DNA of 64,000 nt from Escherichia coli (lineage in GTDB: Bacteria > Pseudomonadota > Gammaproteobacteria > Enterobacterales > Enterobacteriaceae). Position numbers and translations under genes: made by a program. The stretch lies in the NCBI RefSeq assembly GCF_044647545.1, contig NZ_CP172818.1. One strand, 5' to 3'. Numbering within the stretch: the stretch's first letter is position 1; the number at the start of each line of letters is the position of its first letter. Below the pieces are notes generated by a model, which saw only the letters and a program-made list of their open reading frames with translations, searched no databases and was not told where the DNA came from. Of this stretch, positions 5,664-40,502 are shown in pieces.

Positions 5664-5768
5664 CTAGCCTGTCCGTTCGATAAGAAGAACGGACAAAACC
5701 AGCACAACAGCAATGGCAAAAAACGATGACGTGATAATCAGTGTCTCGACGAACATTTGATCGTTCAT
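5664..5768 (-). CDS. yoaI: Small membrane protein YoaI (34 aa)
   Basis: Minus-strand ORF read by hand: [34 protein letters not shown]; below the ORF-track size cut-off. Confidence 0.6.
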
Positions 5769-5937
5769 AGTATGCCCCCGGGAGATAGCTGTTTTCACGT
5801 TATTGTTAACGTGCACAAATGGCAGTTTGATGACAGTTCGCCTGATTTTTTATGCAAAAAACGTAAAGATTTTCTACTTCCTTCCTGCAGCAAGCGTAAA
5901 GTAAGCAGGCTTATTATTCTTTGGCAAGGAAACCACG

Positions 5938-6384
5938 ATGTTTGATGTCACTTTGCTGATCCTGCTCGGGTTAGCTGCGCTGGGCTTTATCAGTCATAAC
6001 ACCACTGTCGCCGTTTCAATTCTGGTGTTAATCATTGTCCGCGTCACACCGTTAAGCACCTTTTTCCCGTGGATTGAAAAACAGGGGCTAAGTATCGGGA
6101 TAATCATTCTGACGATTGGTGTTATGGCTCCCATCGCCAGCGGGACGCTACCGCCCTCAACCCTGATTCACTCGTTTCTGAACTGGAAATCGCTGGTGGC
6201 AATTGCAGTCGGCGTTATTGTCTCCTGGCTGGGAGGGCGCGGCGTGACGTTAATGGGCAGCCAGCCGCAACTGGTCGCCGGGTTGCTGGTGGGCACTGTT
6301 TTAGGCGTGGCGCTGTTTCGCGGCGTACCGGTTGGCCCGCTTATTGCCGCGGGTCTGGTTTCGCTGATTGTGGGGAAACAGTAG
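5938..6384 (+). CDS. yeaL: UPF0756 inner-membrane protein YeaL
   Basis: 148-aa hydrophobic ORF; 3' end overlaps the convergent nimR. Confidence 0.85.
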
Positions 6385-7162
6385 TTAATCCCGCAATATA
6401 TCGGCCTGGCGTTTGCCCCAGGCCTTTCTTAAACATAGTAATAAAGGCCGTTGTTGAATCATACCCCAGCGTATGAGCAACTTTCTGTACAGTATCGCCT
6501 TTCACTAATCCCTGAAGCGCCATAATCAGCTGTAACTGCTGACGCCACTGGCGAAAACTCAACCCCGTCTCTTTCACTATCAGCCGGGCAAGATTGCGTT
6601 CACTCATCGCAAAAAAGCGAGCCCATTGCCCCAATGACCCCCACTCGACGGGCTCTTTCGCCATCATCTCCACCATCGCGCGGATTTTAGGATGAGAAGA
6701 AACGGGTAGGTGCAGCTGTTGTTGTGGCTGCTGAGGGAGTTCATCAAACAGGACCTGAATTAATCTGCGGGTCATCGGCTCAGCACGCTGAGTCGTCGTC
6801 CTGTTTGCCAGGGTTAAAATTAATTCCCGGCATAAGGGCGATATTTTCAATGTGCAACAGGTTGTCGGCATTGTCACTGCGCTGGGTTCGATAAACAGAA
6901 AACAGAGTTCGGCGTTAGCTGTCACTTGATTGCTATGTTCCACCCCTCCCGGTATCCAAACCGCATATTGCGGCGGCACCATCCACAAAGCATTTTCCAC
7001 CGTACAGGTAATTGCACCATGTAGCGCCAGTATCAGCTGTCCTTTGCGGTGCTGATGTACAGGACTGGTTAACTCATCCGTTCCGGCGTGAATACAAAAT
7101 GCGACCGCGGCTTCATGGTGTCGGTCGGGTTCATAGCCATTGAGATTCAACCTGTGCATCAT
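6341..7162 (-). CDS. nimR: AraC-family transcriptional regulator NimR (YeaM)
   Basis: 273-aa ORF with cupin-like N-terminus and AraC-type HTH C-terminus; divergent from the MFS gene nimT. Confidence 0.85.
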
Positions 7163-7258
7163 TTTGTCCGAATTTAGCGATAATTTGTCATTTTAGCTTG
7201 ATTCAACATAACACTAAAAACGGTAAGGTACAGCCTCGTTTGTAACAATGAGAAGCAT

Positions 7259-8440
7259 ATGACCTGTTCAACTTCATTAAGCGGCAAAAACAGGATTGTC
7301 CTTATCGCTGGTATTCTGATGATTGCCACAACATTACGCGTCACCTTTACCGGCGCAGCACCGTTACTGGATACGATTCGTTCCGCTTACTCGCTGACGA
7401 CGGCGCAAACCGGCTTATTGACCACCCTGCCATTATTAGCCTTTGCGCTAATCTCACCGCTGGCCGCCCCGGTGGCGCGACGTTTTGGTATGGAACGTAG
7501 CCTGTTTGCCGCGTTACTTTTGATCTGTGCAGGTATCGCAATTCGCTCTCTCCCTTCGCCTTACTTATTATTTGGCGGTACAGCGGTCATTGGCGGTGGG
7601 ATTGCATTAGGCAATGTCTTACTGCCAGGATTAATTAAACGCGATTTCCCTCATTCCGTCGCCAGACTTACCGGCGCATATTCCCTGACAATGGGAGCTG
7701 CGGCGGCACTGGGATCGGCTATGGTAGTGCCGCTGGCTTTGAACGGTTTTGGCTGGCGAGGCGCGTTGCTCATGCTGATGTGTTTTCCTCTGCTGGCTCT
7801 TTTTTTATGGCTGCCACAGTGGCGAAGCCAACAACATGCAAATTTGAGTACTTCACGCGCCTTACATACTCGGGGTATCTGGCGTTCGCCGCTTGCCTGG
7901 CAGGTAACATTGTTTCTTGGGATCAACTCACTGGTCTATTACGTGATTATTGGCTGGCTTCCGGCGATCCTCATCAGTCACGGCTATAGCGAAGCACAGG
8001 CGGGTTCACTGCATGGTTTGCTGCAACTAGCCACAGCAGCTCCCGGTTTGCTGATCCCACTTTTCTTACACCATGTGAAAGATCAGCGTGGTATTGCAGC
8101 GTTCGTTGCCTTGATGTGCGCAGTGGGCGCGGTTGGGCTCTGCTTTATGCCAGCGCACGCGATCACCTGGACTCTGCTTTTCGGCTTTGGTTCCGGCGCA
8201 ACAATGATACTGGGGTTGACGTTCATTGGTCTGCGGGCAAGTTCTGCGCATCAGGCGGCGGCACTCTCGGGGATGGCACAATCCGTCGGGTATTTGCTGG
8301 CAGCCTGTGGGCCGCCGCTGATGGGTAAAATACACGATGCTAACGGTGACTGGTCCGTACCACTGATGGGTGTTGCAATACTTTCACTACTGATGGCGAT
8401 TTTCGGACTTTGCGCCGGGAGAGACAAAGAAATTCGCTAA
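7259..8440 (+). CDS. nimT: MFS transporter NimT (YeaN)
   Basis: 393-aa, roughly 12-TM hydrophobic ORF; divergent from nimR. Confidence 0.85.
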   Translation: MTCSTSLSGKNRIVLIAGILMIATTLRVTFTGAAPLLDTIRSAYSLTTAQTGLLTTLPLLAFALISPLAAPVARRFGMERSLFAALLLICAGIAIRSLPSPYLLFGGTAVIGGGIALGNVLLPGLIKRDFPHSVARLTGAYSLTMGAAAALGSAMVVPLALNGFGWRGALLMLMCFPLLALFLWLPQWRSQQHANLSTSRALHTRGIWRSPLAWQVTLFLGINSLVYYVIIGWLPAILISHGYSEAQAGSLHGLLQLATAAPGLLIPLFLHHVKDQRGIAAFVALMCAVGAVGLCFMPAHAITWTLLFGFGSGATMILGLTFIGLRASSAHQAAALSGMAQSVGYLLAACGPPLMGKIHDANGDWSVPLMGVAILSLLMAIFGLCAGRDKEIR

Positions 8441-8494
8441 TATCCGGTGCTATAGTGACGTGACAAATCATGCGTGAAAGGGAGAACAAACACG

Positions 8495-8842
8495 ATGAAT
8501 ATTCAGTGCAAACGCGTTTATGATCCGGCTGAACAGAGCGATGGTTATCGCGTACTGGTCGACCGCCTCTGGCCGCGCGGTATCAAAAAAACCGATTTAG
8601 CCCTTGATGAGTGGGATAAAGAAATCACGCCGTCAACGGAACTGCGCAAAGCCTTTCACGGCGAAGTCGTCGATTTTGCAACCTTTCGCGAGCAATATCT
8701 TGCAGAACTGGCGCAACACGAGCAAGAAGGAAAGCGGCTGGCGAACATCGCCAAAAAACAGCCGCTGACCCTGCTCTACTCAGCAAAAAACACCACGCAG
8801 AACCATGCGCTGGTGCTGGCAGACTGGCTACGTAGCTTGTGA
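8495..8842 (+). CDS. yeaO: DUF488 protein YeaO
   Basis: ATG at 8495 after GGGAGA SD gives 115 aa; ORF track start 8474 is an upstream extension. Confidence 0.8.
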   Translation: MNIQCKRVYDPAEQSDGYRVLVDRLWPRGIKKTDLALDEWDKEITPSTELRKAFHGEVVDFATFREQYLAELAQHEQEGKRLANIAKKQPLTLLYSAKNTTQNHALVLADWLRSL

Positions 8843-8863
8843 TTTTAGTACGCCATCCGGCGG

Positions 8864-9118
8864 TTATTTTTCACCAGCCGGATGGTCCCGTCGCCACAAT
8901 GCCCATTCATCAATCGTTTCACCGCCCGGTAATTTGCAATTGTTGCTGACCCCTTGCGCTGTCTGCACTGGAATGAGCGTCCCGCCCTTCTGCTGGCAAT
9001 AGACCGACGCCGGATTTGCCATACCAATCTGTGGCGGTTTAGGTGCTTCTGGCTGAGAAGGGGTTGAACAACCAGCCAGGACCAGCAAGCAAGGCAGAAC
9101 AAAACTGATAATTTTCAT
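8864..9118 (-). CDS. yoaF: DUF333 lipoprotein YoaF
   Basis: 84-aa ORF with lipoprotein signal (LVLAGCSTP lipobox). Confidence 0.8.
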   Translation of the reverse strand: MKIISFVLPCLLVLAGCSTPSQPEAPKPPQIGMANPASVYCQQKGGTLIPVQTAQGVSNNCKLPGGETIDEWALWRRDHPAGEK

Positions 9119-9300
9119 TTATTGATCTCACATATTTATCCAGACTTAGAGTATCGCGGTATCGTTTTGTTTTGCAGCACTATTTTTATTACATTCACTC
9201 AAAACATATTACGCCTTGTTTCATCTTTGTTGATGATGTTTTATCATGCCTGCAAAGATTAAATAATCAGCATTTACCCGCCGTATCCTGGAGTTGTTTC

Positions 9301-10326
9301 GTGTCAGATCAGATTATCGCCCGCGTCTCGCAATCCCTTGCCAAAGAACAGTCACTGGAAAGTCTGGTTCGACAGCTTCTGGAGATGCTGGAAATGGTCA
9401 CTGATATGGAATCAACCTACCTGACCAAAGTGGATGTCGAAGCGCGCCTGCAGCATATAATGTTTGCCCGTAACAGCCAGAAAATGCACATCCCGGAGAA
9501 TTTTACCGTCTCGTGGGATTACTCGTTATGCAAACGCGCCATTGATGAAAACTGCTTTTTCAGCGATGAAGTCCCCGACCGTTGGGGCGACTGTATTGCG
9601 GCACGCAATCTTGGCATCACCACATTTCTGAGCACGCCAATTCACTTACCGGATGGATCATTCTATGGCACGCTTTGCGCCGCCAGCAGTGAGAAGCGCC
9701 AGTGGAGTGAACGCGCGGAACAGGTTTTGCAGTTATTCGCCGGACTGATTGCACAATATATTCAAAAAGAGGCGCTGGTAGAACAGCTGCGCGAAGCCAA
9801 TGCCGCACTGATAGCGCAATCGTATACCGACTCGTTAACCGGGCTACCGAATCGGCGGGCGATTTTTGAAAATCTGACGACGCTGTTTTCTCTCGCCCGG
9901 CATCTTAACCATAAGATAATGATCGCGTTTATCGACCTGGATAACTTCAAATTAATCAACGATCGTTTTGGTCATAATAGTGGCGATCTGTTTCTCATTC
10001 AGGTTGGCGAGCGCCTTAATACGCTCCAGCAAAATGGCGAAGTTATTGGTCGTCTCGGCGGTGATGAGTTTTTGGTTGTTTCACTGAACAACGAGAATAC
10101 GGATATTTCGTCGCTGCGAGAACGTATTCAACAGCAAATACGTGGAGAATATCACTTAGGTGATGTTGATTTGTATTATCCCGGTGCCAGTCTTGGCATA
10201 GTAGAAGTCGATCCTGAAACGACCGATGCAGACAGTGCCCTGCATGCTGCCGATATCGCGATGTATCAGGAGAAAAAACACAAACAGAAAACACCTTTTG
10301 TCGCGCATCCAGCGCTACATTCCTGA
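9301..10326 (+). CDS. dgcP: GAF-GGDEF diguanylate cyclase
   Basis: GTG at 9301 after GGAG gives 341 aa; intact GRLGGDEFLVV motif. Confidence 0.85.
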   Translation: MSDQIIARVSQSLAKEQSLESLVRQLLEMLEMVTDMESTYLTKVDVEARLQHIMFARNSQKMHIPENFTVSWDYSLCKRAIDENCFFSDEVPDRWGDCIAARNLGITTFLSTPIHLPDGSFYGTLCAASSEKRQWSERAEQVLQLFAGLIAQYIQKEALVEQLREANAALIAQSYTDSLTGLPNRRAIFENLTTLFSLARHLNHKIMIAFIDLDNFKLINDRFGHNSGDLFLIQVGERLNTLQQNGEVIGRLGGDEFLVVSLNNENTDISSLRERIQQQIRGEYHLGDVDLYYPGASLGIVEVDPETTDADSALHAADIAMYQEKKHKQKTPFVAHPALHS

Positions 10327-10358
10327 GGCGTATTCACATCCTTTTGATTGGTGATAAC

Positions 10359-10457
10359 ATGCGAATCGGTATTATTTTTCCGGTTGTAATCTTTATTACA
10401 GCGGTCGTATTTTTAGCATGGTTTTTTATTGGCGGCTATGCTGCCCCGGGAGCATAA
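10359..10457 (+). CDS. yoaK: Small membrane protein YoaK (32 aa)
   Basis: Hand-translated: MRIGIIFPVVIFITAVVFLAWFFIGGYAAPGA; below ORF-track cut-off. Confidence 0.55.
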   Translation: MRIGIIFPVVIFITAVVFLAWFFIGGYAAPGA

Positions 10458-10459
10458 AG

Positions 10460-10534
10460 ATGAAAAAAACAACGATTATTATGATGGGTGTGGCGATTAT
10501 TGTCGTACTCGGCACTGAGCTGGGATGGTGGTAA
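10460..10534 (+). CDS. yoaJ: Small membrane protein YoaJ (24 aa)
   Basis: Hand-translated: MKKTTIIMMGVAIIVVLGTELGWW; starts 2 nt after the yoaK stop. Confidence 0.55.
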   Translation: MKKTTIIMMGVAIIVVLGTELGWW

Positions 10535-10592
10535 CGTCACATCTAGAAAATAGCAAAGGCTGCCTGTGTGCAGCCTTTGTGCAATTTACGCG

Positions 10593-10841
10593 TTAACTTT
10601 TAATCTTTCTGTAGATAAACAGCACGACAATCGCGCCAATAACGGCAACCACGAAGCTGCCAAAATTGAAGCCATCGACTTTACCAAAGCCAAACAGCGT
10701 GCTGATCCATCCGCCGACTACGGCACCGACTATCCCCAGCAGGATAGTCATAAAGAATCCACCACCATCTTTACCTGGCATGATCCACTTCGCCAGAATA
10801 CCGGCAATAAGCCCAAAAATAATCCATGACAGAATGCCCAT
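10593..10841 (-). CDS. yeaQ: GlsB/YeaQ/YmgE-family small membrane protein
   Basis: 82-aa Gly-rich hydrophobic ORF. Confidence 0.85.
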   Translation of the reverse strand: MGILSWIIFGLIAGILAKWIMPGKDGGGFFMTILLGIVGAVVGGWISTLFGFGKVDGFNFGSFVVAVIGAIVVLFIYRKIKS

Positions 10842-14826: not shown

Positions 14827-16386
14827 ATGACTCATATAGCAATGTTAAAAAAAAAGATGGCTAAAAATTTTTTTTTTAACTTTTCCCCAAAAAAACCCAA
14901 AAATTTTGTTACGCGTACGTTAGGTTCCGCCGTACAGGTATTGGTTTTGCTGGCAATGGGACTGGTGATTTATTTAGCCACCAGTAAATACGGCAATATT
15001 CGTCTTGGCGAAGGAAAACCGGAATACAGCACGCTCTCCTGGCTGTTTATGTTTATTTGTGCCGGTTTAGGTTCTTCTACGCTTTATTGGGGGGTTGCTG
15101 AATGGGCCTATTATTATCAAACCCCTGGATTAAATATCGCACCGCGTTCACAACAGGCACTCGAATTTAGCGTCCCTTACTCCTTCTTCCACTGGGGCAT
15201 CAGCGCCTGGGCAACTTATACGCTGGCCTCATTAATCATGGCTTATCACTTTCATGTGCGGAAAAATAAGGGGCTGAGCCTTTCCGGCATTATTGCTGCT
15301 ATTACCGGCGTTCGCCCGCAAGGCCCATGGGGAAAACTGGTCGATTTGATGTTCCTGATCGCCACTGTCGGCGCACTGACCATTTCCCTTGTTGTCACCG
15401 CAGCAACCTTTACCCGTGGGCTTTCCGCGCTGACCGGTTTACCCGATAATTTCACCGTGCAGGCATTTGTGATCCTGCTTTCCGGCGGCATTTTTTGCCT
15501 AAGCTCGTGGATTGGTATCAACAACGGTTTGCAACGTCTGAGCAAAATGGTTGGCTGGGGCGCGTTCCTGCTGCCATTACTGGTGCTCATTGTCGGCCCA
15601 ACCGAATTTATTACCAACAGCATCATCAATGCCATCGGCCTGACCACGCAAAACTTCCTGCAAATGAGCTTATTCACCGATCCGCTTGGCGATGGTTCAT
15701 TTACCCGCAACTGGACCGTTTTCTACTGGCTGTGGTGGATCTCATACACCCCTGGCGTAGCAATGTTTGTCACCCGCGTTTCCCGCGGTCGTAAGATTAA
15801 AGAAGTTATCTGGGGACTGATCCTCGGCAGCACCGTCGGTTGCTGGTTCTTCTTCGGCGTAATGGAAAGCTATGCCATTCACCAGTTTATCAATGGCGTA
15901 ATCAACGTCCCACAGGTGCTGGAAACACTGGGCGGCGAGACAGCTGTGCAGCAAGTTCTGATGTCGTTGCCAGCCGGTAAATTGTTCCTCGCCGCATACC
16001 TGGGCGTGATGATTATTTTCCTTGCCTCGCATATGGATGCAGTGGCCTACACCATGGCGGCAACCAGTACGCGTAATCTCCAGGAAGGTGACGATCCTGA
16101 CCGTGGGCTGCGTCTTTTCTGGTGCGTGGTAATTACCTTGATCCCGCTTTCAATTCTTTTCACTGGCGCGTCGCTGGAAACGATGAAAACCACCGTCGTA
16201 CTCACAGCCCTTCCGTTCCTCGTCATTTTACTGGTGAAAGTCGGCGGATTTATTCGCTGGCTGAAACAGGATTACGCCGACATTCCGGCTCATCAAGTTG
16301 AACATTATCTCCCGCAGACACCGGTTGAAGCCCTGGAAAAAACACCAGTGCTCCCTGCGGGAACCGTATTCAAAGGCGACAACTGA
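14827..16386 (+). CDS. yeaV: BCCT-family transporter YeaV (start uncertain; TTG at 14941 would give the 481 aa remembered for K-12)
   Basis: Long multi-TM ORF; first 38 codons cover homopolymer tracts and look like leader rather than coding sequence. Confidence 0.8.
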
Positions 16387-19766: not shown

Positions 19767-19795
19767 TCAAAAAAAACGCCGGATTAACCGGCGTC
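19767..19795 (-). terminator. Rho-independent terminator after fadD
   Basis: Minus strand reads ACGCCGGTTAATCCGGCGT followed by T8. Confidence 0.6.
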
Positions 19796-19813
19796 TGACG
19801 ACTGACTTAACGC

Positions 19814-21499
19814 TCAGGCTTTATTGTCCACTTTGCCGCGCGCTTCGTCACGTAATTCTCGTCGCAAAATTTTTCCGACGTTAGATTTCGGTAACTCATC
19901 ACGAAACTCCACCAGCTTCGGTACTTTGTAGCCCGTGAGCTGACGGCGGCAAAAGGTCACCAGTGACTCTTCGGTAAGCGATGGATCTTTTTTCACTACG
20001 AAGATTTTCACCGCTTCACCACTGGAGCCGGAAGGTACGCCAACAGCCGCGACTTCCTGTACGCCAGGATGCTGCATGACGACATCTTCAATCTCGTTGG
20101 GATAGACGTTAAAACCGGAAACCAGAATCATGTCTTTTTTACGATCGACAATGCGCAGGAATCCTTCTTCATCCATCACCGCGATGTCGCCGGTGTGTAA
20201 CCAGCCATTTTTGATGATTTCATCGGTAGCATCCGGACGCTGCCAGTAACCCAGCATCACCTGCGGTCCTTTGACACAAAGCTCACCTGGTTGACCCGGT
20301 GGTACTTCGTTGTCGTCGTCATCCACCAGTTTGGCTTCCGTCGACGGCACCGGCAAACCGATGCTACCACTATGATAATCAATATCATACGGGTTAACGC
20401 TGACCAGCGGCGCACACTCGGTCAGGCCATAACCTTCCAGCAGATACTGTCCAGTCAGTTTCACCCAACGTTCTGCCACCACTTGCTGAACAGGCATCCC
20501 TCCGCCTGCGGAAAGATGCAGACTGGAGAAATCCAGCTGCTGGAACTCTTTATTGTTCAGCAACGCATTGAACAAGGTGTTAACGCCAGTGATAGCGGTA
20601 AACGGATATTTCGCTAACTCTTTTACCAACCCTGGAATATCGCGCGGGTTAGTGATAAGCAGGTTCTGCCCACCCAGTTCGATAAACAGCAGGCAGTTAA
20701 TGGTCAGGGCAAAAATGTGATACAGCGGCAGCGCCGTCACCACCAGCTCTTTGCCCGGATGCAACAGCGGACCATAGGTCGCGTTAACCTGTTCCAGGTT
20801 CGCCAGCATATTGCGGTGAGTCAGCATCGCGCCTTTCGCCACACCAGTGGTACCGCCGGTGTATTGCAGGAAAGCTAAATCTTCCGGCACCAGTTCGGGT
20901 TTGACGTACTGCATCCGGTAGCCGCTGTGCAGGGCGCTACGAAATGAAATGGCATCTGGCAGATGGTATTTCGGCACCAGACGCTTGATGTATTTAACAA
21001 CGAAATTGACTACCGTGCCTTTTGCCGTAGATAGCTGATCGCCCATACGGGTCAGAATTACGTGCTGAACGGCGGTTTTATCAACCACTTTTTCCAGAGT
21101 GTGGGCAAAGTTAGACACGATAACAATCGCCGATGCGCCGCTATCGTTAAGCTGATGCTCAAGTTCACGCGGGGTATACAACGGGTTAACGTTTACGACA
21201 ATCATCCCGGCACGCAAAATGCCAAACAGCGCCACCGGATATTGCAATAAATTAGGCATCATCAACGCAACGCGATCGCCTTTCTTCAGTCCCAACCCTT
21301 GTTGCAAATAAGCGGCAAACGCGCGACTGCGTTCTTCCAGTTTGCGGAAGGTCATCACCTCCCCCATATTCACAAACGCGGGTTGATCGGCGTAGCGCGC
21401 GACCGACTGCTCAAACATATCTACCAGAGATTGATAACGGTCAGGGTTGATCTCCGTCGGAACGTCCGCGGGATAACGGTTAAGCCAAACCTTCTTCAA
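19814..21499 (-). CDS. fadD: Long-chain fatty acyl-CoA synthetase
   Basis: AMP-binding signature ([15 protein letters not shown]); 561 aa from a non-ATG start (LKKVWLNRY...); ORF track Met at 21565 is upstream of it. Confidence 0.9.
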
Positions 21500-26303: not shown

Positions 26304-26483
26304 TTACTCGTCTTCATCCTCAAAACGCGCCACGATTCGCTCGCCGGAATGGTTGGCACGCAGCTCTTCTGCCACCAACGCGATTGCCTGGCCGCTGCTC
26401 ATCCCTTGAGCCATCAGTTCCTGGATCCGCTCGACAGCTTTTTGCTGCTGTTCATGGGTGAGTGAAGGTAAACCTGCAAACAT
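26304..26483 (-). CDS. yoaH: UPF0181 protein YoaH (59 aa)
   Basis: Hand-translated minus-strand ORF: [59 protein letters not shown]. Confidence 0.7.
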
Positions 26484-28683: not shown

Positions 28684-30048
28684 GTGATTAGTCTATTCGA
28701 CATGTTTAAGGTGGGGATTGGTCCCTCATCTTCCCATACCGTAGGGCCTATGAAGGCGGGTAAACAGTTCGTCGATGATCTGGTCGAAAAAGGCTTACTG
28801 GATAGCGTTACTCGCGTTGCCGTGGACGTTTATGGTTCACTGTCGCTGACGGGTAAAGGCCACCACACCGATATCGCCATTATTATGGGTCTTGCAGGTA
28901 ACGAACCTGCCACCGTGGATATCGACAGTATTCCCGGTTTTATTCGCGACGTAGAAGAGCGCGAACGTCTGCTGCTGGCACAGGGACGGCATGAAGTGGA
29001 TTTCCCGCGCGACAACGGGATGCGTTTTCATAACGGTAACCTGCCGCTGCATGAAAACGGTATGCAAATCCACGCCTATAATGGCGATGAAGTCGTCTAC
29101 AGCAAAACTTATTATTCCATCGGCGGCGGTTTTATCGTCGATGAAGAACACTTTGGTCAGGATGCCGCCAACGAAGTGAGCGTGCCGTATCCGTTCAAAT
29201 CTGCCACCGAACTGCTCGCGTACTGTAATGAAACCGGCTATTCGCTTTCTGGTCTCGCTATGCAGAACGAACTGGCGCTGCACAGCAAGAAAGAGATCGA
29301 CGAGTATTTCGCGCATGTCTGGCAAACCATGCAGGCATGTATCGATCGCGGGATGAATACCGAAGGCGTACTGCCAGGCCCGCTGCGCGTGCCGCGTCGT
29401 GCGTCTGCCCTGCGCCGGATGCTGGTTTCCAGCGATAAACTGTCTAACGATCCGATGAATGTCATTGACTGGGTAAACATGTTTGCGCTGGCAGTTAACG
29501 AAGAGAACGCCGCCGGTGGTCGTGTGGTAACTGCGCCAACCAACGGTGCTTGTGGCATTGTTCCGGCAGTGCTGGCTTATTATGACCACTTTATTGAATC
29601 GGTTAGCCCGGACATCTATACCCGTTACTTTATGGCAGCGGGCGCGATTGGTGCACTGTATAAAATGAACGCCTCTATTTCCGGTGCGGAAGTCGGTTGC
29701 CAGGGCGAAGTGGGTGTTGCCTGTTCAATGGCTGCTGCGGGCCTTGCCGAGCTGTTGGGCGGTAGCCCGGAACAGGTTTGTGTGGCAGCGGAAATTGGCA
29801 TGGAGCACAACCTCGGTCTGACCTGTGACCCTGTTGCAGGGCAAGTTCAGGTGCCGTGCATTGAACGTAACGCCATTGCGTCAGTCAAGGCGATTAACGC
29901 CGCGCGGATGGCCCTGCGTCGCACCAGTGCACCGCGCGTCTCGCTGGATAAGGTCATCGAAACGATGTACGAAACCGGTAAAGACATGAACGCCAAGTAC
30001 CGCGAAACGTCTCGTGGTGGTCTGGCAATTAAAGTCCAGTGTGACTAA
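28684..30048 (+). CDS. sdaA: L-serine dehydratase 1 (Fe-S)
   Basis: 454-aa ORF beginning [23 protein letters not shown]. Confidence 0.95.
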
Positions 30049-30161
30049 TACTTTATCCTCGCCCATCTGCAACCCCGCTTTCTCGTCTGCTGTAATATTC
30101 CCCACTACACTTCCACTGTTGCGTCAGGCGTTTGTCGCCATACGCTTACAGGGTGGCCCGC

Positions 30162-31760
30162 ATGCAAAAAGCACAACGGATCATTAAAACCTATCGCCGT
30201 AATCGAATGATTGTTTGTACGATTTGCGCACTCGTTACGCTCGCTTCGACCCTGAGCGTGCGATTTATTTCACAGCGTAACTTAAATCAACAACGGGTAG
30301 TACAATTCGCCAATCACGCTGTAGAGGAATTAGATAAAGTACTGCTTCCCCTACAGGCAGGTAGCGAAGTCTTGCTTCCGCTGATTGGTCTGCCCTGCTC
30401 TGTCGCCCATTTGCCATTACGTAAACAGGCGGCAAAACTCCAAACTGTGCGATCCATTGGCCTGGTGCAAGACGGCACACTTTATTGCTCCAGCATTTTT
30501 GGTTATCGCAATGTGCCCGTCGTGGACATTCTGGCTGAACTTCCTGCACCGCAACCACTTTTACGCCTGACGATCGACCGTGCCCTGATTAAAGGCAGTC
30601 CGGTTTTGATTCAGTGGACGCCAGCAGCGGGCAGTAGCAAAGCTGGGGTCATGGAGATGATTAACATCGACTTACTGGCGGCAATGCTGCTTGAGCCACA
30701 ACTGCCGCAAATCAGTAGCGCCAGCCTGACGGTGGACAATCGGCATTTGCTCTATGGTAATGGGCTGGTAGATTCCCTTCCGCAACCTGAAAACAATGAA
30801 AACTACCAGGTTTCTTCGCAACGCTTTCCTTTTACCATTAACGTTAATGGTCCGGGGGCTACGGCGCTGGCATGGCACTATCTTCCAACACAATTACCGC
30901 TGGCGGTGCTGCTAAGTTTACTGGTGGGCTACATCGCCTGGCTGGCGACCGCTTACCGGATGAGCTTTTCCCGCGAAATCAATCTGGGCCTGGCGCAACA
31001 TGAGTTCGAATTGTTCTGTCAGCCTTTGCTTAATGCGCGCAGCCAGCAATGTATTGGTGTAGAGATTTTGCTTCGCTGGAACAATCCGCGTCAGGGCTGG
31101 ATTTCACCGGATGTGTTTATTCCTATCGCGGAAGAACATCATTTAATTGTGCCACTGACCCGCTATGTGATGGCAGAAACCATCCGTCAGCGGCATGTTT
31201 TCCCAATGAGTAGTCAGTTTCATGTTGGCATTAACGTCGCACCCAGCCATTTTCGCCGTGGTGTGCTGATAAAAGATCTCAATCAGTACTGGTTTAGCGC
31301 TCACCCGATTCAGCAACTGATCCTCGAAATCACCGAACGCGATGCCTTACTGGATGTTGATTATCGGATTGCCCGCGAGCTGCATCGTAAAAACGTCAAA
31401 CTGGCGATTGATGACTTCGGCACCGGCAACAGTTCGTTTTCCTGGCTTGAAACATTACGTCCTGACGTGCTGAAAATTGATAAGTCATTTACCGCAGCTA
31501 TAGGTTCTGACGCGGTTAACTCGACGGTGACCGATATCATCATCGCTCTGGGGCAAAGACTGAATATTGAACTGGTGGCGGAGGGTGTGGAAACACAAGA
31601 ACAGGCGAAGTATTTGCGCCGTCATGGGGTGCATATTTTGCAAGGGTATTTGTACGCACAGCCGATGCCGCTACGTGATTTTCCCAAATGGCTGGCGGGC
31701 AGCCAACCGCCGCCCGCCCGGCATAATGGACATATCACGCCCGTTATGCCGTTACGTTAA
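30162..31760 (+). CDS. pdeD: CSS-motif EAL-domain c-di-GMP phosphodiesterase
   Basis: 532 aa from internal Met; periplasmic loop carries Cys and a CSS motif (TLYCSSIFGY); C-terminal EAL-type domain. Confidence 0.85.
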   Translation: MQKAQRIIKTYRRNRMIVCTICALVTLASTLSVRFISQRNLNQQRVVQFANHAVEELDKVLLPLQAGSEVLLPLIGLPCSVAHLPLRKQAAKLQTVRSIGLVQDGTLYCSSIFGYRNVPVVDILAELPAPQPLLRLTIDRALIKGSPVLIQWTPAAGSSKAGVMEMINIDLLAAMLLEPQLPQISSASLTVDNRHLLYGNGLVDSLPQPENNENYQVSSQRFPFTINVNGPGATALAWHYLPTQLPLAVLLSLLVGYIAWLATAYRMSFSREINLGLAQHEFELFCQPLLNARSQQCIGVEILLRWNNPRQGWISPDVFIPIAEEHHLIVPLTRYVMAETIRQRHVFPMSSQFHVGINVAPSHFRRGVLIKDLNQYWFSAHPIQQLILEITERDALLDVDYRIARELHRKNVKLAIDDFGTGNSSFSWLETLRPDVLKIDKSFTAAIGSDAVNSTVTDIIIALGQRLNIELVAEGVETQEQAKYLRRHGVHILQGYLYAQPMPLRDFPKWLAGSQPPPARHNGHITPVMPLR

Positions 31761-31763
31761 CAC

Positions 31764-33320
31764 TTACTCATCTTCATCGTGCGCCGGTTGCTCTTTAACA
31801 ATGCGAACCAGATCAACACGATAATCATTGGCTTCAATGATGGTGATATGCAGTGGCCCTACATCAATCACATCGCCCACACGGGGAATGTGACCATTTG
31901 CCGAGATCACGAGGCCCGCGACCGTCGCGATATCATCGTCATCGGCAAGGTGCTCAACATCAAGCGCCTGCTGCAAGGCATGCAAATCTGTACCGCCTTT
32001 TACCAGCCAGCCGTCACCGTCGGTAATGATTTCCGGCGTTTCGTCAGCGTCCGGGAATTCACCCGCAATGGCTTCCAGCACATCCAGCGGCGTGACCAAG
32101 CCTTGTACCACACCAAACTCGTTGGTCACGATAACAAAGCTCCCGCGAGCACGACGCAGCACGCCCAGCAGGTTGATCGGATCGAGGGTTTCCGGGACGA
32201 TAATCGCCGGAGACGCCGAAGCAATCGCCGCCACATCAACGCCCTCTTCCAGCGCCACCAGCAGTTCTTTAGCACGTACGATACCAATGATTTCATCCAG
32301 TTCACCGCGACATACCGGGAACAGACTGTGCGGTGAAGAGAGCAGTTGCTCGCGGATTTCATCGACCCCGAGATTAGCGTCAACCCAGCTTATTTCACCG
32401 CGCGGCGTCATGATCCCGCGCAGAGAACGCGACGCCAGCGTCAATACGCCGTTAATCATGTAACGTTCTTCTTCGGCAAATGCACCTTCCGGGATCGGCA
32501 TCGGCATCGGGTTATCGGCATCGTGCTGGACATTGGCCTGACGTTTCCCGCCCATCAAACGCAGGATGGCATCGGCAGTACGCGCTCGCAGCGGCAAAGT
32601 CGACTGGTGACGAATAAAGTTGCGACGCGCAATCTGGTTAAACACTTCGATGATGATCGAGAAGCCAATAGCGGCATACAGGTAACCTTTCGGAATGTGG
32701 AAACCGAAACCTTCTGCCACCAGACTCAGACCAATCATTAACAGGAAGCTCAGACAGAGCACCACCACCGTGGGGTGCTGGTTAACGAATCGCGTCAGCG
32801 GTTTCGATGCCAGCAGCATAACCGCCATCGCAATCACTACCGCCGCCATCATCACCGGCAGATGGTTAACCATCCCTACTGCAGTAATTACCGCATCCAA
32901 TGAGAAGACGGCGTCAAGGATGACAATCTGTGTGACGACCACCCAGAAACTGGCGTAGCCTTTACCGTGGCCGGAATCATGATCGCGGTTTTCCAGCCGT
33001 TCATGCAGTTCGGTTGTTGCTTTGAACAGCAAGAATATCCCCCCGAACAACATAATCAGGTCGCGTCCGGAGAAGGAGAAATCCATGACGGTAAATAGCG
33101 GTTTGGTCAGCGTGACCATCCATGAAATCAGCGACAGCAGCCCCAGACGCATAATCAGCGCCAATGATAATCCCAGCAAACGCGCTTTATCGCGTTGTTT
33201 TGGCGGCAGTTTGTCAGCAAGAATGGCGATGAAGACCAGGTTATCGATACCCAGCACAATTTCCAGAACAACAAGCGTGAGTAGCCCCGCCCAAATTGAG
33301 GGGTCCATTAAGAATTCCAT
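31764..33320 (-). CDS. yoaE: TerC-family membrane protein with CBS and CorC/HlyC domains, YoaE
   Basis: 518-aa ORF with TerC-like TM N-terminus and CBS pair. Confidence 0.85.
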
Positions 33321-33782
33321 GACAAGCTCCTGCTTAAGGAATAGCTATTCGACGCCAGAAATAATGCAGGCGTAACGACAAAATGCAAACGAAAGGTGCG
33401 GCATAGAGTGCCAGAAAGGCAGGCGTTAAAAGGCCTGATGCTGAAATGACGTCGGTGACGATCCATACTGCGGGCTACTGCCCTATACTCCATGGTTGTT
33501 AAACGGGAGTTAAACATATCAGAGACACATCTGATTTGGCAAAGATTTACCTTCCTTTGCAAACGAATGTGACAAGGATATTTTACCTTTCGAAATTTCT
33601 GCTAATCGAAAGTTAAATTACGGATCTTCATCACATAAAATAATTTTTTCGATATCTAAAATAAATCGCGAAACGCAGGGGTTTTTGGTTGTAGCCCTTA
33701 TCTGAATCGATTCGATTGTGGACGACGATTCAAAAATACATCTGGCACGTTGAGGTGTTAACGATAATAAAGGAGGTAGCAA

Positions 33783-35617: not shown

Positions 35618-35620
35618 CAG

Positions 35621-36481
35621 GTGAGCGAAATGGTTGATACAACTCAAACTACCACCGAGAAAAAACTCACTCAAAGTGATATTCGTGGCGTCTTCCTGCG
35701 TTCTAACCTCTTCCAGGGTTCATGGAACTTCGAACGTATGCAGGCACTGGGTTTCTGCTTCTCTATGGTACCGGCAATTCGTCGACTCTACCCTGAGAAC
35801 AACGAAGCTCGTAAACAAGCTATTCGCCGTCACCTGGAGTTCTTTAACACCCAGCCGTTCGTGGCTGCGCCGATTCTCGGCGTAACCCTGGCGCTGGAAG
35901 AACAGCGTGCTAATGGCGCAGAGATCGATGACGGTGCTATCAACGGTATCAAAGTCGGTTTGATGGGGCCGCTGGCTGGTGTAGGCGACCCGATCTTCTG
36001 GGGAACCGTACGTCCGGTATTTGCAGCGCTGGGTGCCGGTATCGCAATGAGCGGCAGCCTGTTAGGTCCGCTGCTGTTCTTCATCTTGTTTAACCTGGTG
36101 CGTCTGGCAACCCGTTACTACGGCGTAGCGTATGGTTACTCCAAAGGTATCGATATCGTTAAAGATATGGGTGGTGGTTTCCTGCAAAAACTGACGGAAG
36201 GGGCGTCTATCCTCGGCCTGTTTGTCATGGGGGCATTAGTTAACAAGTGGACGCATGTCAACATCCCGCTGGTTGTCTCTCGCATTACTGACCAGACGGG
36301 CAAAGAACACGTTACCACTGTCCAGACTATTCTGGACCAGTTAATGCCAGGCCTGGTACCACTGCTGCTGACCTTTGCTTGTATGTGGCTACTGCGCAAA
36401 AAAGTTAACCCGCTGTGGATCATCGTTGGCTTCTTCGTCATCGGTATCGCTGGTTACGCTTGCGGCCTGCTGGGACTGTAA
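35621..36481 (+). CDS. manZ: Mannose PTS EIID component
   Basis: 286-aa ORF (283 aa if the start is the Met at 35630). Confidence 0.9.
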   Translation: MSEMVDTTQTTTEKKLTQSDIRGVFLRSNLFQGSWNFERMQALGFCFSMVPAIRRLYPENNEARKQAIRRHLEFFNTQPFVAAPILGVTLALEEQRANGAEIDDGAINGIKVGLMGPLAGVGDPIFWGTVRPVFAALGAGIAMSGSLLGPLLFFILFNLVRLATRYYGVAYGYSKGIDIVKDMGGGFLQKLTEGASILGLFVMGALVNKWTHVNIPLVVSRITDQTGKEHVTTVQTILDQLMPGLVPLLLTFACMWLLRKKVNPLWIIVGFFVIGIAGYACGLLGL

Positions 36482-36496
36482 GACTGATGTACACTA

Positions 36497-36523
36497 CCGG
36501 GGCCTTTTGGCCCCGTTTTTTTA
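36497..36523 (+). terminator. Rho-independent terminator after manXYZ
   Basis: CGGGGCCTTTTGGCCCCG hairpin followed by T8. Confidence 0.6.
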
Positions 36524-36535
36524 TCTGGAGGATTA

Positions 36536-36994
36536 ATGACAATCACGGACCTGGTACTGATTCTTTTCATCGCCGCACTCCTGGCCTTCGCGATCTACGA
36601 TCAGTTCATCATGCCCCGCCGTAACGGCCCCACTCTGCTGGCAATTCCTTTGCTCCGGCGTGGTCGCATCGATAGCGTTATCTTCGTCGGATTGATTGTC
36701 ATTCTTATCTATAACAACGTCACGAATCATGGCGCGCTAATAACAACATGGTTATTAAGTGCACTGGCTCTGATGGGTTTTTATATATTCTGGATCCGCG
36801 TTCCGAAGATCATCTTTAAACAAAAAGGTTTTTTCTTCGCCAATGTCTGGATTGAATATAGCCGAATCAAAGCGATGAACTTGTCGGAAGATGGCGTGTT
36901 GGTGATGCAATTAGAACAGCGTCGGCTGTTAATCCGCGTTCGAAATATCGACGATCTGGAAAAAATTTATAAGCTTCTCGTTTCAACTCAATAG
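36536..36994 (+). CDS. yobD: UPF0266 membrane protein YobD
   Basis: 152-aa ORF with TM helices. Confidence 0.85.
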
Positions 36995-37194
36995 GTTATG
37001 AATTTAGCCAAAGCTATGTTTAGTGTATTTTTAATAATCAGACATAGCTTAGGCTATATTACCTCTTCCCTTATTTGTTATTTATTTTAACGTTTCATTG
37101 ATATATAAATCTAAATGAAAATCGTTATCAATAAAGCAATGAAATAATATATTCCAACAGTTGTTTTATATTCTCAAAATATGTTAAGGTTGCG

Positions 37195-37330
37195 CCCTCA
37201 TTTGGGGAGTAGCCGATTTCCAGATTCCGGAAATGTACGTGTCAACATACTCGTTGCAAAACGTGGCACGTACGGACTGAACACTTTCAGTCAGGCGAGA
37301 CCATATGCACATCAATCGCTATGCCTGCAT
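37195..37330 (+). promoter_or_regulatory. yybP-ykoY-type Mn(2+) riboswitch in the mntP leader (approximate bounds)
   Basis: Long structured leader with conserved-looking blocks TTGGGGAGTAGCCG (37201-37214) and CAGGCGAGACC (37291-37301) about 120-220 nt upstream of the mntP ATG. Confidence 0.5.
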
Positions 37331-37423
37331 GAACGCGAAAACCCATCGCGGCTTGTTGTTCATGTATGCATGTTTGCTGGGGGCGATGATGTGTTTTATG
37401 GATACCCCGGTCAGGACGTTGTC

Positions 37424-37990
37424 ATGAATATCACTGCTACTGTTCTTCTTGCGTTTGGTATGTCGATGGATGCATTTGCTGCATCAATCGGTAAAGGTGC
37501 CACCCTCCATAAACCGAAATTTTCTGAAGCGTTGCGAACCGGCCTTATTTTTGGTGCCGTCGAAACCCTGACGCCGCTGATCGGCTGGGGAATGGGCATG
37601 TTAGCCAGCCGGTTTGTCCTTGAATGGAACCACTGGATTGCGTTTGTGCTGCTGATATTTCTCGGCGGGCGAATGATTATTGAGGGTTTTCGTGGCGCAG
37701 ATGATGAAGATGAAGAACCGCGCCGTCGACACGGTTTTTGGTTACTGGTAACCACTGCGATTGCCACCAGCCTGGATGCCATGGCTGTGGGTGTTGGTCT
37801 TGCTTTCCTTCAGGTCAACATTATCGCGACCGCATTGGCCATTGGTTGTGCAACCTTGATTATGTCGACATTAGGGATGATGGTAGGTCGCTTTATCGGC
37901 TCAATTATTGGGAAAAAAGCGGAAATTCTCGGCGGGCTGGTGCTGATCGGCATCGGCGTCCAGATCCTCTGGACGCACTTCCACGGTTAA
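37424..37990 (+). CDS. mntP: Mn(2+) efflux pump MntP
   Basis: ATG at 37424 gives 188 aa ([18 protein letters not shown]...); ORF track start 37181 is an in-frame extension through the leader. Confidence 0.9.
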
Positions 37991-38796
37991 TAAGAACGCT
38001 GCCAGAGGTGAATATTAAAGTCCGTCTGGCAGTCGAACACTTCTTTTGCTGCCAGTGTTTGCCAGACTTCTGGCTTCGCACGCCAGGCAAACGGCGTCAT
38101 CTGCAATAATGCGACGGCTTCGTCACCGCGAAGACGCATCGGATAACACAACTCATCACTCTGCTGTAATGTAAAACCTTCCAGTTGTTCTGCATGTGGT
38201 GCATGAAGATGTACTTCATTGTAAATCAGCCCCTTCAGCTCCATCAAATGTCGCGGTCCCGGCGTGGCAGTAATGACCCAACCGCCAGGCTTCACTACGC
38301 GCGCTAATTCTTCTGCTTTACACGGCGCGTAAATACGTATTATGGCGTCCATACTGGTATCGGAAAACGGCAAACGGTGGCTGGAAGCAACACAAAAAGT
38401 GACCTGCGGATAGCGTTTCGCCGCCGCTTTTATCGCTACCTTCGAGACATCCAGACCAAACGTGGTGATTTCGGGCAGCGCATCGGCAAATGCGTGTGTG
38501 TAATACCCTTCACCACAGCCAATATCCAGCACCGCCGTGGCCTTTTCATCAAGCCGTTCCCGCAGTTGGGCGACAATTGCATCACGCAGCGGCTGATAAT
38601 GTCCGGCATCTAAGAATGCGCGGCGTGCTTGCATCATTTCCGCGCTGTCGCCCGGATCACGAGACCGTTTATGCTGAACGGGCAGCAGATTGACATACCC
38701 TTCTTTCGCCATATCAAACTGATGTCGCAGGGGACAGATATAGCTGTTTTTTTCACGCGAAAGAGGCTGATGGCAAAGTGGACAGGAAAACGACAT
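37987..38796 (-). CDS. rlmA: 23S rRNA m1G745 methyltransferase
   Basis: 269-aa ORF with N-terminal Zn-binding Cys cluster and SAM-methyltransferase motif ([11 protein letters not shown]). Confidence 0.9.
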
Positions 38797-38889
38797 GACA
38801 ACTCCGGCAGGATACTAAAGGCCGCAAGTGTAACGCGAATCACGCGGCGGGCAAATATCCGAACGCCTGGAGCGAAGATAAAGCAAAGT

Positions 38890-38916
38890 AAAAAGCCTCG
38901 CATTCGGCGAGGCTTT
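38890..38916 (-). terminator. Rho-independent terminator after cspC
   Basis: Minus strand reads GCCTCGCCGAATGCGAGGC followed by a T run. Confidence 0.6.
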
Positions 38917-38961
38917 ATAGCGAGATTGAAGCGTATTCACACTTCAGATCAGTGGATTCGA

Positions 38962-39171
38962 TCAGATAGCTGTTACGTTAACAGCTGCCGGACCTTTCTG
39001 GCCGTCCTGAATTTCGAACTCAACGTTCTGACCTTCAGCCAGAGTTTTGAAGCCATTACCCTGGATAGCGGAGAAGTGTACGAACACGTCTTTGCTGCCA
39101 TCAGCCGGAGTAATGAAGCCAAAACCTTTAGACTCGTTGAACCACTTAACCTGACCTTTAATCTTTGCCAT
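38962..39171 (-). CDS. cspC: Cold-shock-domain protein CspC
   Basis: 69-aa [23 protein letters not shown]... with RNP1/RNP2 motifs. Confidence 0.95.
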
Positions 39172-39183
39172 TTGAAAAATTCC

Positions 39184-39327
39184 TTAGATTGTTTTCTTCG
39201 CCCGCAGGCATAACATAGATAAAACTGACACATTACTGCATGAGGCACCAATATAAGGCTCGGCAGAGAAGCGGTATTCAACGTCAACGTGTTTACTCAG
39301 GACTTCTTTACTGAAAATGCCACACAT
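39184..39327 (-). CDS. yobF: Small protein YobF (47 aa), co-oriented just upstream of cspC
   Basis: Hand-translated: [47 protein letters not shown]. Confidence 0.65.
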
Positions 39328-39996
39328 AAACAGAACTGTACCTCGTTTAACCCGAAATCTGTTATCACATACAACGTTAATTATGGCAAGCCATTTTTAA
39401 ACATGTCTCGATCAGACGCACAAATCTCGATACGTCTTCCACTTTTTTTGCACACTTATGCAACGGAATACGCGCCGATATATCATTGTGCTTAACCTTG
39501 CCAGTTCAGGCAGATACTTAAACTGACGTATTTTCTAACATAGTTCAATAAGTTCAGTTGTTCCAGGCCAGTGGGAGAAGTTATTACATAGTGCGTGCAA
39601 TATCACATTTTCTGCTATGCAATGAATAAAAAGTTATATCACTTTTTCTCATAAAACAGTCAGTTAACGGCCACCAATTACCCCAAAGAGAAGTCAATCC
39701 CCAATGGTATTGTAAATTTAAAATAAGAAAAATTGATGAATGCGCAAAAAAATCAAGAGAGAAACGTTTCGCTAATAAATAATACCATGCTTAATCACAA
39801 ATCCGATGTAAACATCCTAATAAATTAATGGGCTAAATATCTTTTTCTGATATCCCGTTACGCAAATAAATAATATGATAATTATTTGAAGTCAGACCAG
39901 AGTTTTAATTTGAAGCAGTTGCACCATGACAGTGCGTATAATCAGGATGAATTGAGTAACCCTTCAACGACGGGGTTACTCAAGATTGAGGAAGGA

Positions 39997-40284
39997 TTAT
40001 CGTTCGGCGACCAGACGAATAATATCTTCGTCTTCAACCGATTTTTGACTCTCAACGGTCTTTTTATCTGCTTTCTCAGGTTCGTTTGCTTCGCACAAAC
40101 GACGTAACAGAGCATTTTGACGTTTTTGCTGATCCAGCAACGCCTCAAGCAGTTCAATCTGTTCGTTAGTCCGTGAACTGGCACGATTGATAAAAAACCA
40201 CAAGATAAGCCCGATAAAAAGAACCACCACCGATACAACCAAAGACGCAATGTTCATCACGCCTGAATTTACAACTTCGTTCAT
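39997..40284 (-). CDS. yebO: Small membrane protein YebO
   Basis: 95-aa ORF with N-terminal TM helix and charged coiled-coil-like tail. Confidence 0.8.
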   Translation of the reverse strand: MNEVVNSGVMNIASLVVSVVVLFIGLILWFFINRASSRTNEQIELLEALLDQQKRQNALLRRLCEANEPEKADKKTVESQKSVEDEDIIRLVAER

Positions 40285-40358
40285 TTCACCACCTCTGAGT
40301 AGAGGCGCTATTCTACCACTGCTGGAGAGGAAGAAAATCTAGTGCTGAAAAAATGATA

Positions 40359-40502
40359 TCACCACGGGATAAACTGGTTAATGGCACAAATTCCGCTGAA
40401 AAATTGTACATCCTGATCGCACATCATGTTGAATACCTGCGCCCAAAGCAGCAAGCAAGCCAACACCACGACAACCAGAACGACCCATCGAAACTTTTTC
40501 AC
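40359..40502 (-). CDS. mgrB: PhoQ-inhibiting small membrane protein MgrB (47 aa)
   Basis: Hand-translated from a GTG start with GGAG SD: [47 protein letters not shown]; below ORF-track cut-off. Confidence 0.8.

Follow-up and report, generated by a model that had tools for sequence, protein, structure and literature searches.

Five annotated small-protein genes in an Escherichia coli window: a probably coupled yoaK–yoaJ pair and a yobF region conserved chiefly at the nucleotide level

A stretch of 64,000 nucleotides (nt) of the Escherichia coli chromosome (contig NZ_CP172818.1 of assembly GCF_044647545.1), analysed here at its full length and referred to as the window, carries five genes for proteins of fewer than 60 amino acids (aa) – yoaI, yoaK, yoaJ, yobF and mgrB – that an earlier note had read from the bare sequence. 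With high confidence, we take these to be five annotated E. coli small-protein genes, two of which, yoaK and yoaJ, are likely coupled, and the region of a third, yobF, to be conserved chiefly at the nucleotide level. Purifying selection that is specific to the reading frame and extends across genera was found in four of the five (yoaI, yoaK, yoaJ and mgrB), and on this comparative evidence these four can be said to evolve as proteins, as ordinary coding genes for single-pass membrane peptides.

The window is collinear with K-12 MG1655 at about 1,868,400–1,932,400, and the stretches tested are 100% identical to several complete E. coli genomes, for example that of strain FDAARGOS_497. All five open reading frames (ORFs) translate without internal stops and match RefSeq coding sequences base for base, which bears out the coordinates, strands and start codons of the earlier note; its names are right as well, both by the RefSeq/K-12 annotation (locus tags b1788 for yoaI, b4676 for yoaK, b4675 for yoaJ, b1824 for yobF and b1826 for mgrB) and by family models, each protein matching a curated NCBIfam or Pfam model above its cut-off. 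The five loci are present in 5411–5425 of 5426 complete E. coli genomes.

Selection was gauged from the proportions of synonymous (pS) and non-synonymous (pN) differences, obtained as simple Nei–Gojobori counts over all pairs of distinct sequences, without a tree; as a control, each set of sequences was also read in the two shifted frames. An alignment of YoaK, scanned against the genome collection, gave 80 species loci across the Enterobacteriaceae, and the cspC–yobF–mgrB neighbourhoods were located by exact-sequence look-up, with CspC and then with YobF homologues and the Klebsiella pneumoniae MgrB. Among these neighbourhoods, the Salmonella and Klebsiella labels were assigned by gene content and MgrB sequences; the other taxa, named as their protein sources are labelled, are Serratia, Rouxiella, Brenneria, Atlantibacter, Cronobacter, Apirhabdus, Leclercia and Entomohabitans. 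The cross-genus data span only about 3.4–17.4 kb and 29–49 kb, about half of the window.

The four genes with protein-type conservation

Conservation in related genomes, the absence of which the earlier note had named as a refuting observation, is of the protein type for yoaI, yoaK, yoaJ and mgrB; yobF is conserved too, but not in a protein-like manner. The description of all five as hydrophobic or regulatory likewise suits the four membrane peptides but not so readily YobF, which is not clearly hydrophobic (grand average of hydropathy 0.33; best 15-aa window 1.47). The features relevant to yoaI and mgrB are the following.

yoaI: 5664–5768, minus strand; 34-aa single-pass membrane protein, ATG start.
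Pho-box-like site CTGTCATCAAACTGCCAT: 5819–5836, minus strand; 51 nt upstream of the yoaI ATG, two mismatches to the PhoB box consensus.
mgrB: 40359–40502, minus strand; 47 aa, GTG start, with GGAG at 40509–40512, 6 nt upstream.
PhoP-box-like repeat TAGTTAGGCGCTGTTTA: 40553–40569, minus strand; upstream of mgrB, two mismatches.

YoaI, whose ATG follows a GGGGG ribosome-binding run by 6 nt as read from the sequence, matches the NCBIfam equivalog model NF041475 with 79.8 bits (cut-off 45) and does not differ from the known protein: the same 34 residues, the reported invariant S26, V27 and E31 – all three carried by the window protein – and a Pho-box-like site upstream. The gene was found in 24 loci of other taxa, at a length of 34–35 aa, with a pS of 0.57 and a pN of 0.18 (pN/pS 0.305; shifted frames 1.04 and 2.67) and with 27, 14 and 31 variable columns at codon positions 1, 2 and 3. 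Within E. coli, the region is at least 99% identical in 731 of 5411 genomes. The Pho-box-like site was scored against the PhoB box consensus, which at no more than three mismatches matches the window twice where 0.44 matches are expected. The site agrees with the reported transcription of yoaI under PhoB control, the protein itself activating EnvZ-OmpR through Glu31, a residue present in the window protein (PMC11429745).

The GTG start of mgrB, as the note had read it, is real: it is retained in every genus examined, namely Escherichia, Salmonella, Klebsiella and the genus behind an enterobacterial contig (L007). In the same four sources, C28, C39 and W47 of the protein are invariant, and the conserved cysteines and terminal tryptophan of MgrB are known to be functionally important. 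Counts for the gene (pS 0.67, pN 0.12, pN/pS 0.184; shifted frames 0.93 and 3.5; variable columns 15/5/34) are again those of a protein-coding sequence, and in several genera it lies within a yebO–mgrB–yobH neighbourhood. The best hydrophobic window, 3.29 at residues 7–21, corresponds to an N-terminal transmembrane segment. Together with the conserved C-terminus and the full length of 47 aa, this segment is shared with the known MgrB, the window protein being identical to that of K-12. That the gene is the PhoQ regulator, as had been claimed, is upheld by matches to PF13998 (66.3 bits; cut-off 27) and NF007635 (89.9 bits; cut-off 40; residues 1–47), the PhoQ inhibition itself coming from the literature, in which MgrB is the PhoP-induced feedback inhibitor of this sensor kinase (summarised in PMC11429745). 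As a PhoP site, the repeat upstream of mgrB is only suggestive, PhoP-box-like matches with two mismatches being frequent in the window (31 found, 16 expected). The MgrB of a Klebsiella locus (L012:8745–8888) carries D29V when compared with the canonical protein of K. pneumoniae. Changes in mgrB have been linked to colistin resistance.

Since short ORFs are common by chance, an open frame and its coordinates alone prove nothing for any of the five: 118 ORFs of at least 20 aa lie between positions 5000 and 11500 (6.5 kb), and the whole window holds 1342 of 10–80 codons, 192 of them mostly intergenic. This abundance would favour the idea that some or all of the five are random, non-functional open frames passed on by homology annotation, as would the yobF comparison described below, which shows no selection on the peptide sequence and, in K. 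pneumoniae, an ORF cut to 24 codons. The idea is nonetheless very improbable. Strong frame-specific purifying selection at high synonymous divergence refutes it for yoaI, yoaK, yoaJ and mgrB; each of the five products has been observed, either in tagged form or through initiation profiling (PMC11429745, PMC10470546, 10.1101/511675), MgrB, YoaI and YobF by initiation profiling and as tagged proteins (PMC11429745); and complementation by YobF requires its start codon (PMC11429745).

The yoaK–yoaJ pair

Between dgcP and the convergent yeaQ, the window reads as follows.

yoaK: 10359–10457, plus strand; membrane protein of 32 aa, beginning 32 nt after the dgcP stop.
yoaJ Shine–Dalgarno sequence GGGAG: 10448–10452, plus strand; inside the last Pro-Gly-Ala codons of yoaK, 7 nt before the yoaJ ATG.
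yoaJ: 10460–10534, plus strand; 24-aa membrane protein with C-terminal GWW.
GC-rich hairpin: 10554–10579; between yoaJ and yeaQ, likely a two-way terminator.

Both proteins are identical to those of K-12 and are found in the same dgcP–yoaK–yoaJ/yeaQ context, with no difference from the known families. YoaK, whose start is preceded by GGTGA as read from the sequence, matches NF033821 (69.1 bits; cut-off 32) and consists of a single hydrophobic helix with a motif, FP...WF..GGYA.P, that is invariant or nearly so in the family alignment; over the 80 species loci its pS is 0.68 and its pN 0.11 (pN/pS 0.168; shifted frames 1.6 and 3.0; variable columns 19/11/30). YoaJ matches NF011343 (60.4 bits; cut-off 54), and its gene is likewise under frame-specific selection (pS 0.63, pN 0.18, pN/pS 0.288; shifted frames 1.07 and 1.8; variable columns 16/10/21). 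In 62 of the 80 species, yoaJ has exactly 24 codons and stands directly after yoaK, encoding the pattern M/V-[RK]-K-[ST]-T...G-[WC]-W. YoaK and YoaJ are substrates of RseP in vitro and are used as established small membrane proteins (PMC10470546); YoaK-SPA has served as an abundance reference (bioRxiv 10.1101/511675).

A fold of the E. coli sequence placed a long hairpin inside yoaJ (z = −3.4), a candidate that was rejected when RNAalifold gave no conserved pair in 28 taxa; as the substitutions fall on third positions, this stretch is coding sequence.

The gap of 2 nt reported by the earlier note is correct, the yoaK stop ending at 10457 and the yoaJ ATG beginning at 10460, and the distance turns out to be narrowly bounded. 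From yoaK stop to yoaJ start, it is −4 nt in 11 species, −1 in two, 0 in 27, +2 in 20 and +3 in two, which accounts for all 62 species that have yoaJ; yoaJ starts with ATG in 50 of them and with GTG in 12. Across genera, the terminal Pro-Gly-Ala/Gly codons of yoaK keep a G-rich Shine–Dalgarno run (GGGG or GGAG). Of the 62 species, 55 have the pair immediately behind dgcP and 46 have it convergent with yeaQ, and Salmonella retains it without dgcP upstream. By this distribution, yoaK–yoaJ reads as a conserved cassette of two genes that in most cases sits at the 3′ end of dgcP. The region is at least 99% identical in 2095 of 5416 E. coli genomes, and two Citrobacter assemblies have a damaged junction.

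A tight junction with a Shine–Dalgarno sequence inside the upstream ORF is typical of coupled gene pairs, and this anatomy – stop and start overlapping or a few nt apart, the downstream Shine–Dalgarno sequence within the upstream ORF, all of it conserved – is what is found here. Most likely, then, YoaJ would be made by re-initiation: ribosomes ending yoaK would start again on yoaJ, whose ribosome-binding site is formed by the last yoaK codons. The coupling that the earlier note had suggested thus gains strong support from the comparison of species. What tells against it is that yoaJ, with a recognisable Shine–Dalgarno sequence of its own (GGGAG, 7 nt upstream of the ATG), could be initiated independently. 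If each of the two genes were translated from its own ribosome-binding site, their spacing would reflect no more than the packing of a compact operon, and it also fits such an arrangement that 16 species carry yoaK alone, in another context, so that YoaK needs no YoaJ. We regard independent translation as possible yet doubtful, given the confinement of the spacing to −4 to +3 nt in every species with the pair, 11 of them with an ATGA-type overlap, and the position of the yoaJ Shine–Dalgarno sequence, which always falls within the yoaK coding sequence.

The solitary yoaK genes, which are diverged, occur in Kosakonia, Phytobacter, Pluralibacter and Superficieibacter, among others. At three such loci (L075, L094 and L095), an ORF of about 180 aa overlaps or follows the yoaK stop; it looks acetyltransferase-like by eye, and YoaK may have a different partner there.

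yobF and the yobF–cspC leader

The third subject, yobF, is a translated ORF inside the leader of the cspC messenger.

yobF: 39184–39327, minus strand; 47-aa ORF in the leader of the yobF–cspC mRNA.
cspC: 38962–39171, minus strand; downstream gene of the yobF–cspC operon.
Ultra-conserved nucleotide block: 39223–39398, minus strand; promoter, 5′ untranslated region (UTR) and yobF codons 1–35, from an alignment of 11 taxa.

The window protein is identical to K-12 YobF, lies directly upstream of cspC as the known gene does and matches Pfam DUF2527 (PF10736) with 105 bits (cut-off 25), the model covering residues 1–38 only; it departs from what the family assignment would suggest in that it evolves in the manner of a conserved nucleotide element rather than of a protein. 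The GAGG that precedes its ATG does so at an unusually long spacing of about 12 nt, and in E. coli its stop codon overlaps the cspC Shine–Dalgarno sequence (TAAGGA). Within the species, 5418 of 5421 genomes share a 161-nt yobF segment at 99% identity or more; a sensitive blastn search found it in a single place per E. coli genome, with no paralogous copy of the yobF–cspC leader, for example at cspE.

Unlike the four genes above, yobF shows neither frame-specific purifying selection nor a conserved length. Over codons 2–35 in 14 taxa, pS (0.113) and pN (0.099) are almost equal, the ratio of 0.88 lying between those of the shifted frames (0.70 and 1.19), and of the 14, 12 and 8 variable columns at the three codon positions it is the third that has the fewest (8/34; binomial p = 0.003 against a 50% share). 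The pS of neighbouring genes is far higher: 0.40 for cspC (11 taxa), and 0.67 and 0.76 for mgrB and yebO, respectively (Escherichia, Salmonella, Klebsiella and L007). In the alignment running from promoter to cspC, the block 39223–39398, promoter hexamers included, is nearly invariant from Escherichia to Serratia, Rouxiella and Brenneria, and the rest of the ORF is variable, as is the spacer before cspC.

The ORF, for its part, spans 24–56 aa. Escherichia, Salmonella, Leclercia and Entomohabitans have 47 aa; a form of 38 aa is found in Serratia, Rouxiella, Brenneria, Atlantibacter and one Klebsiella; and the other taxa have 43–56 aa, except that in the K. pneumoniae complex a TAA at codon 25 – in nine of the 10 distinct loci with canonical MgrB – leaves 24 aa, the bases after this stop staying conserved. 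Several database representatives of YobF have internal frameshifts that are later restored, and variable C-termini. Only the first 24–38 codons or so are common across genera, and the C-terminal third of the 47-aa protein is limited to close relatives.

Taken together, the near-equality of pN and pS, the least variable third positions, the unstable ORF length and the conserved bases past the K. pneumoniae stop point to constraint at the nucleotide level, acting on the yobF DNA as the 5′ part of the yobF–cspC mRNA, though the peptide is published as made. yobF is a translated ORF within the 5′-most 140 nt or so of the yobF–cspC messenger, a stretch that is near-constant across the Enterobacterales regardless of codon position. 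On the most likely reading, which at this step we infer, the sequence under selection would be chiefly an RNA or DNA element controlling yobF–cspC expression, with the peptide riding along. To a more specific proposal we give roughly even chances: that the first 100 nt or so of yobF and its 5′ UTR form an ultra-conserved cis- or trans-acting nucleotide element – for example, a platform for CspC/CspE, for another RNA-binding protein or for small RNAs (sRNAs) such as OxyS – that this element, rather than the amino acids of YobF, is what has been preserved across the Enterobacterales, and that the 47-aa E. coli protein came out of a translated leader, either as a by-product confined to its lineage or by secondary recruitment. 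yobF expression has been reported to be controlled post-transcriptionally (PMC11429745), and OxyS is reported to pair near the yobF Shine–Dalgarno sequence and to lower expression of the operon (PMC10965054).

Two kinds of known leader invite comparison. Like the 5′ UTR of cspA, with its thermoregulator (RF01766), the yobF leader is a long and highly conserved leader of a cold-shock-family gene, but the yobF segment has no match to RF01766 and no similarity to the cspA 5′ UTR, and is not unusually structured. A stable structure was rejected because the minimum free energy of the leader (z = +1.56) is that of a sequence less structured than its shuffled versions. In a scan of the whole window, RF01766 did match across cspC and yobF, a match that stems from the coding part of cspC only; positions 39172–39420 by themselves match no Rfam family at E ≤ 1. 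A supposed homology to the cspA 5′ UTR was dropped too, 188 of 500 shuffled sequences giving a local alignment at least as good and an nhmmer profile finding nothing. The other comparison is with leader ORFs that tune a downstream gene, such as yoaL–yoaE and mgtL–mgtA: yobF, too, sits in a leader, with its stop overlapping the cspC Shine–Dalgarno sequence in E. coli. Unlike in that model, however, the yobF stop has no fixed place with respect to cspC, lying about 40 nt upstream in Serratia and overlapping cspC in Cronobacter, and the peptide has a reported function in trans (PMC11429745).

Several points weigh against a control element as the chief object of selection. Neither folding nor the Rfam and cspA comparisons yielded an RNA structure or known RNA family that accounts for the conserved block; the pN/pS values for yobF, too, are simple all-pair counts made without a tree; and nine of the 14 taxa were found through annotated YobF proteins, a route that favours intact ORFs in the sample but does not favour conserved synonymous sites. 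More directly, the low-Mg growth defect of a yobF deletion is rescued by plasmid-borne yobF and not by a version with its ATG changed to TAA (PMC11429745), which means that the E. coli YobF peptide, or at least its translation, is functional. A role at the RNA level would still be compatible with this result, because the untranslated transcript may also be unstable.

One could accordingly suppose that the YobF peptide is itself the selected product and that its low synonymous divergence comes from overlapping signals or from sampling. All taxa seen have the ATG and an open frame over the first 24 codons, Pfam and the Prokaryotic Genome Annotation Pipeline (PGAP) handle YobF as a family, and the protein is produced, is found with membranes when His-tagged – YobF-6xHis fractionates with them – and is needed in trans for growth in low Mg (PMC11429745). 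Selection on the peptide is hard to square, however, with a pN of 0.10 about equal to a pS of 0.11, with third positions that vary least, with a length that is not conserved and frameshifts that are compensated, with conservation that runs on past the K. pneumoniae stop and with a non-coding 5′ UTR just upstream that is equally conserved; we therefore hold it to be the less probable account, worth keeping as a tentative one, and constraint on the nucleotides to be the better one.

The yobF–cspC operon is a mutational hotspot in ageing E. coli colonies, insertion sequence (IS) insertions included (PMC13162491). At one locus of the K. pneumoniae complex (L118:2881–3344), an IS-type transposase ORF begins right after yobF codon 38 or so, in place of cspC, a position that recalls those insertions.

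Further short ORFs and the wider window

As a full set of genes below 60 aa, the five of the earlier note fall short, since three more are annotated in the window, two of them with a name.

yoaL: 33308–33466, minus strand; annotated 52-aa leader ORF overlapping the yoaE start.
PhoP-box-like direct repeat TGTTTAACTCCCGTTTA: 33500–33516, minus strand; 34 nt upstream of the yoaL ATG, one mismatch.
yoaH: 26304–26483, minus strand; annotated, 59 aa.
Mn2+ (yybP-ykoY) riboswitch aptamer: 37196–37292, plus strand; upstream of mntP, 41.9 bits.
40-aa ORF, a 'hypothetical protein' of PGAP: 37305–37427, plus strand; between the Mn riboswitch aptamer and mntP, its stop overlapping the mntP ATG (ATGA).

The note's expectation that other small ORFs could hide in the same intergenic regions is thus right to the extent that these three annotated ones had been missed; no new conserved small ORF emerged from a survey of the 192 mostly intergenic ORFs of 10–80 codons, for which cross-genus data cover about half of the window. 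Compared with loci outside Escherichia, high pS together with low frame-specific pN/pS was seen only in yoaK, yoaJ, yoaI and mgrB. The other survey matches are antisense or shifted frames of these four genes, or conserved leaders (proQ, htpX, mntP, yoaE and manX) with too few substitutions for a judgement.

As the leader ORF of yoaE, yoaL has a published regulatory role (10.1101/511675; PMC12421838), and its homologues carry Pfam PF22867. The PhoP-box-like repeat TGTTTAACTCCCGTTTA is kept in Salmonella, Klebsiella and L007 and lies within the leader of yoaL–yoaE (mgpA), a Mg-stress gene; our literature search found no paper linking PhoP to the yoaL–yoaE operon. A second such repeat with one mismatch, TGTTTAGTGTATTTTTA, is located at 37017–37033 on the plus strand, between yobD and the mntP riboswitch. 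The aptamer of that riboswitch scores just under the Rfam gathering score of 45 and is for this reason missed by a default Rfam scan.

It is tempting to see in the 40-aa ORF a real leader peptide, so far overlooked and coupled to mntP: it is called by PGAP in E. coli genomes, it starts 13 nt past the aptamer match and ends in the ATGA overlap, and its C-terminal half has a similar counterpart in Salmonella and Klebsiella. We consider this unlikely. In the same two genera, the ATG is replaced by ATAGGC or ATAGAC, indels are not multiples of three and, in Salmonella, the stop overlap with mntP is lost; the ORF is not annotated in K-12, and the mntP riboswitch literature searched mentions no such upstream ORF. 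Because start codon and frame are not conserved, the similarity before mntP is best read as nucleotide conservation of the riboswitch expression platform, and the ORF is probably not a conserved gene.

A few observations concern other parts of the window. At the 5′ end of yeaV (14835–14905), a homopolymer-rich stretch of about 65 nt, aaaaaaaaagatggctaaaaattttttttttaacttttccccaaaaaaacccaaaaatttt, stands where normal coding sequence of about 130 nt is found in the otherwise identical FDAARGOS_497. No complete E. coli genome among the 5426 has it in one piece, and on the right it ends where the 5′ deletion of K-12 yeaV ends. It has the look of an artefact of assembly or sequencing, or of a local scramble. 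In the sdaA–pdeD intergenic region (30048–30162), the window is 17 nt shorter than FDAARGOS_497, as judged from coordinate offsets. At 54836–54980, two known sRNA genes, SraC/RyeA and SdsR/RyeB, overlap, one on each strand, and sroD is found at 19770–19855 (minus strand), at the 3′ end of the rnd–fadD spacer.

All five genes being part of standard annotation and of the small-protein literature, to find them is ordinary, already known, and of little weight as a discovery. Its use lies rather in calibration, in that five true small genes could be placed exactly from the raw sequence, yet yoaL and yoaH were missed. Of the comparative parts, we found none stated in the literature searched – the fixed 24 codons of yoaJ, the junction of −4 to +3 nt, the solitary yoaK and the frame-blind conservation of yobF. 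They support yoaK–yoaJ as a fixed and probably coupled cassette, with YoaK alone in some genera, and they place yobF, now studied as the gene of a stress-response protein, in a block of nucleotides whose conservation ignores the reading frame. Inside such a block, deletions and other 'clean' mutants of yobF are likely to disturb a cspC control element as well, and their phenotypes should be read accordingly.

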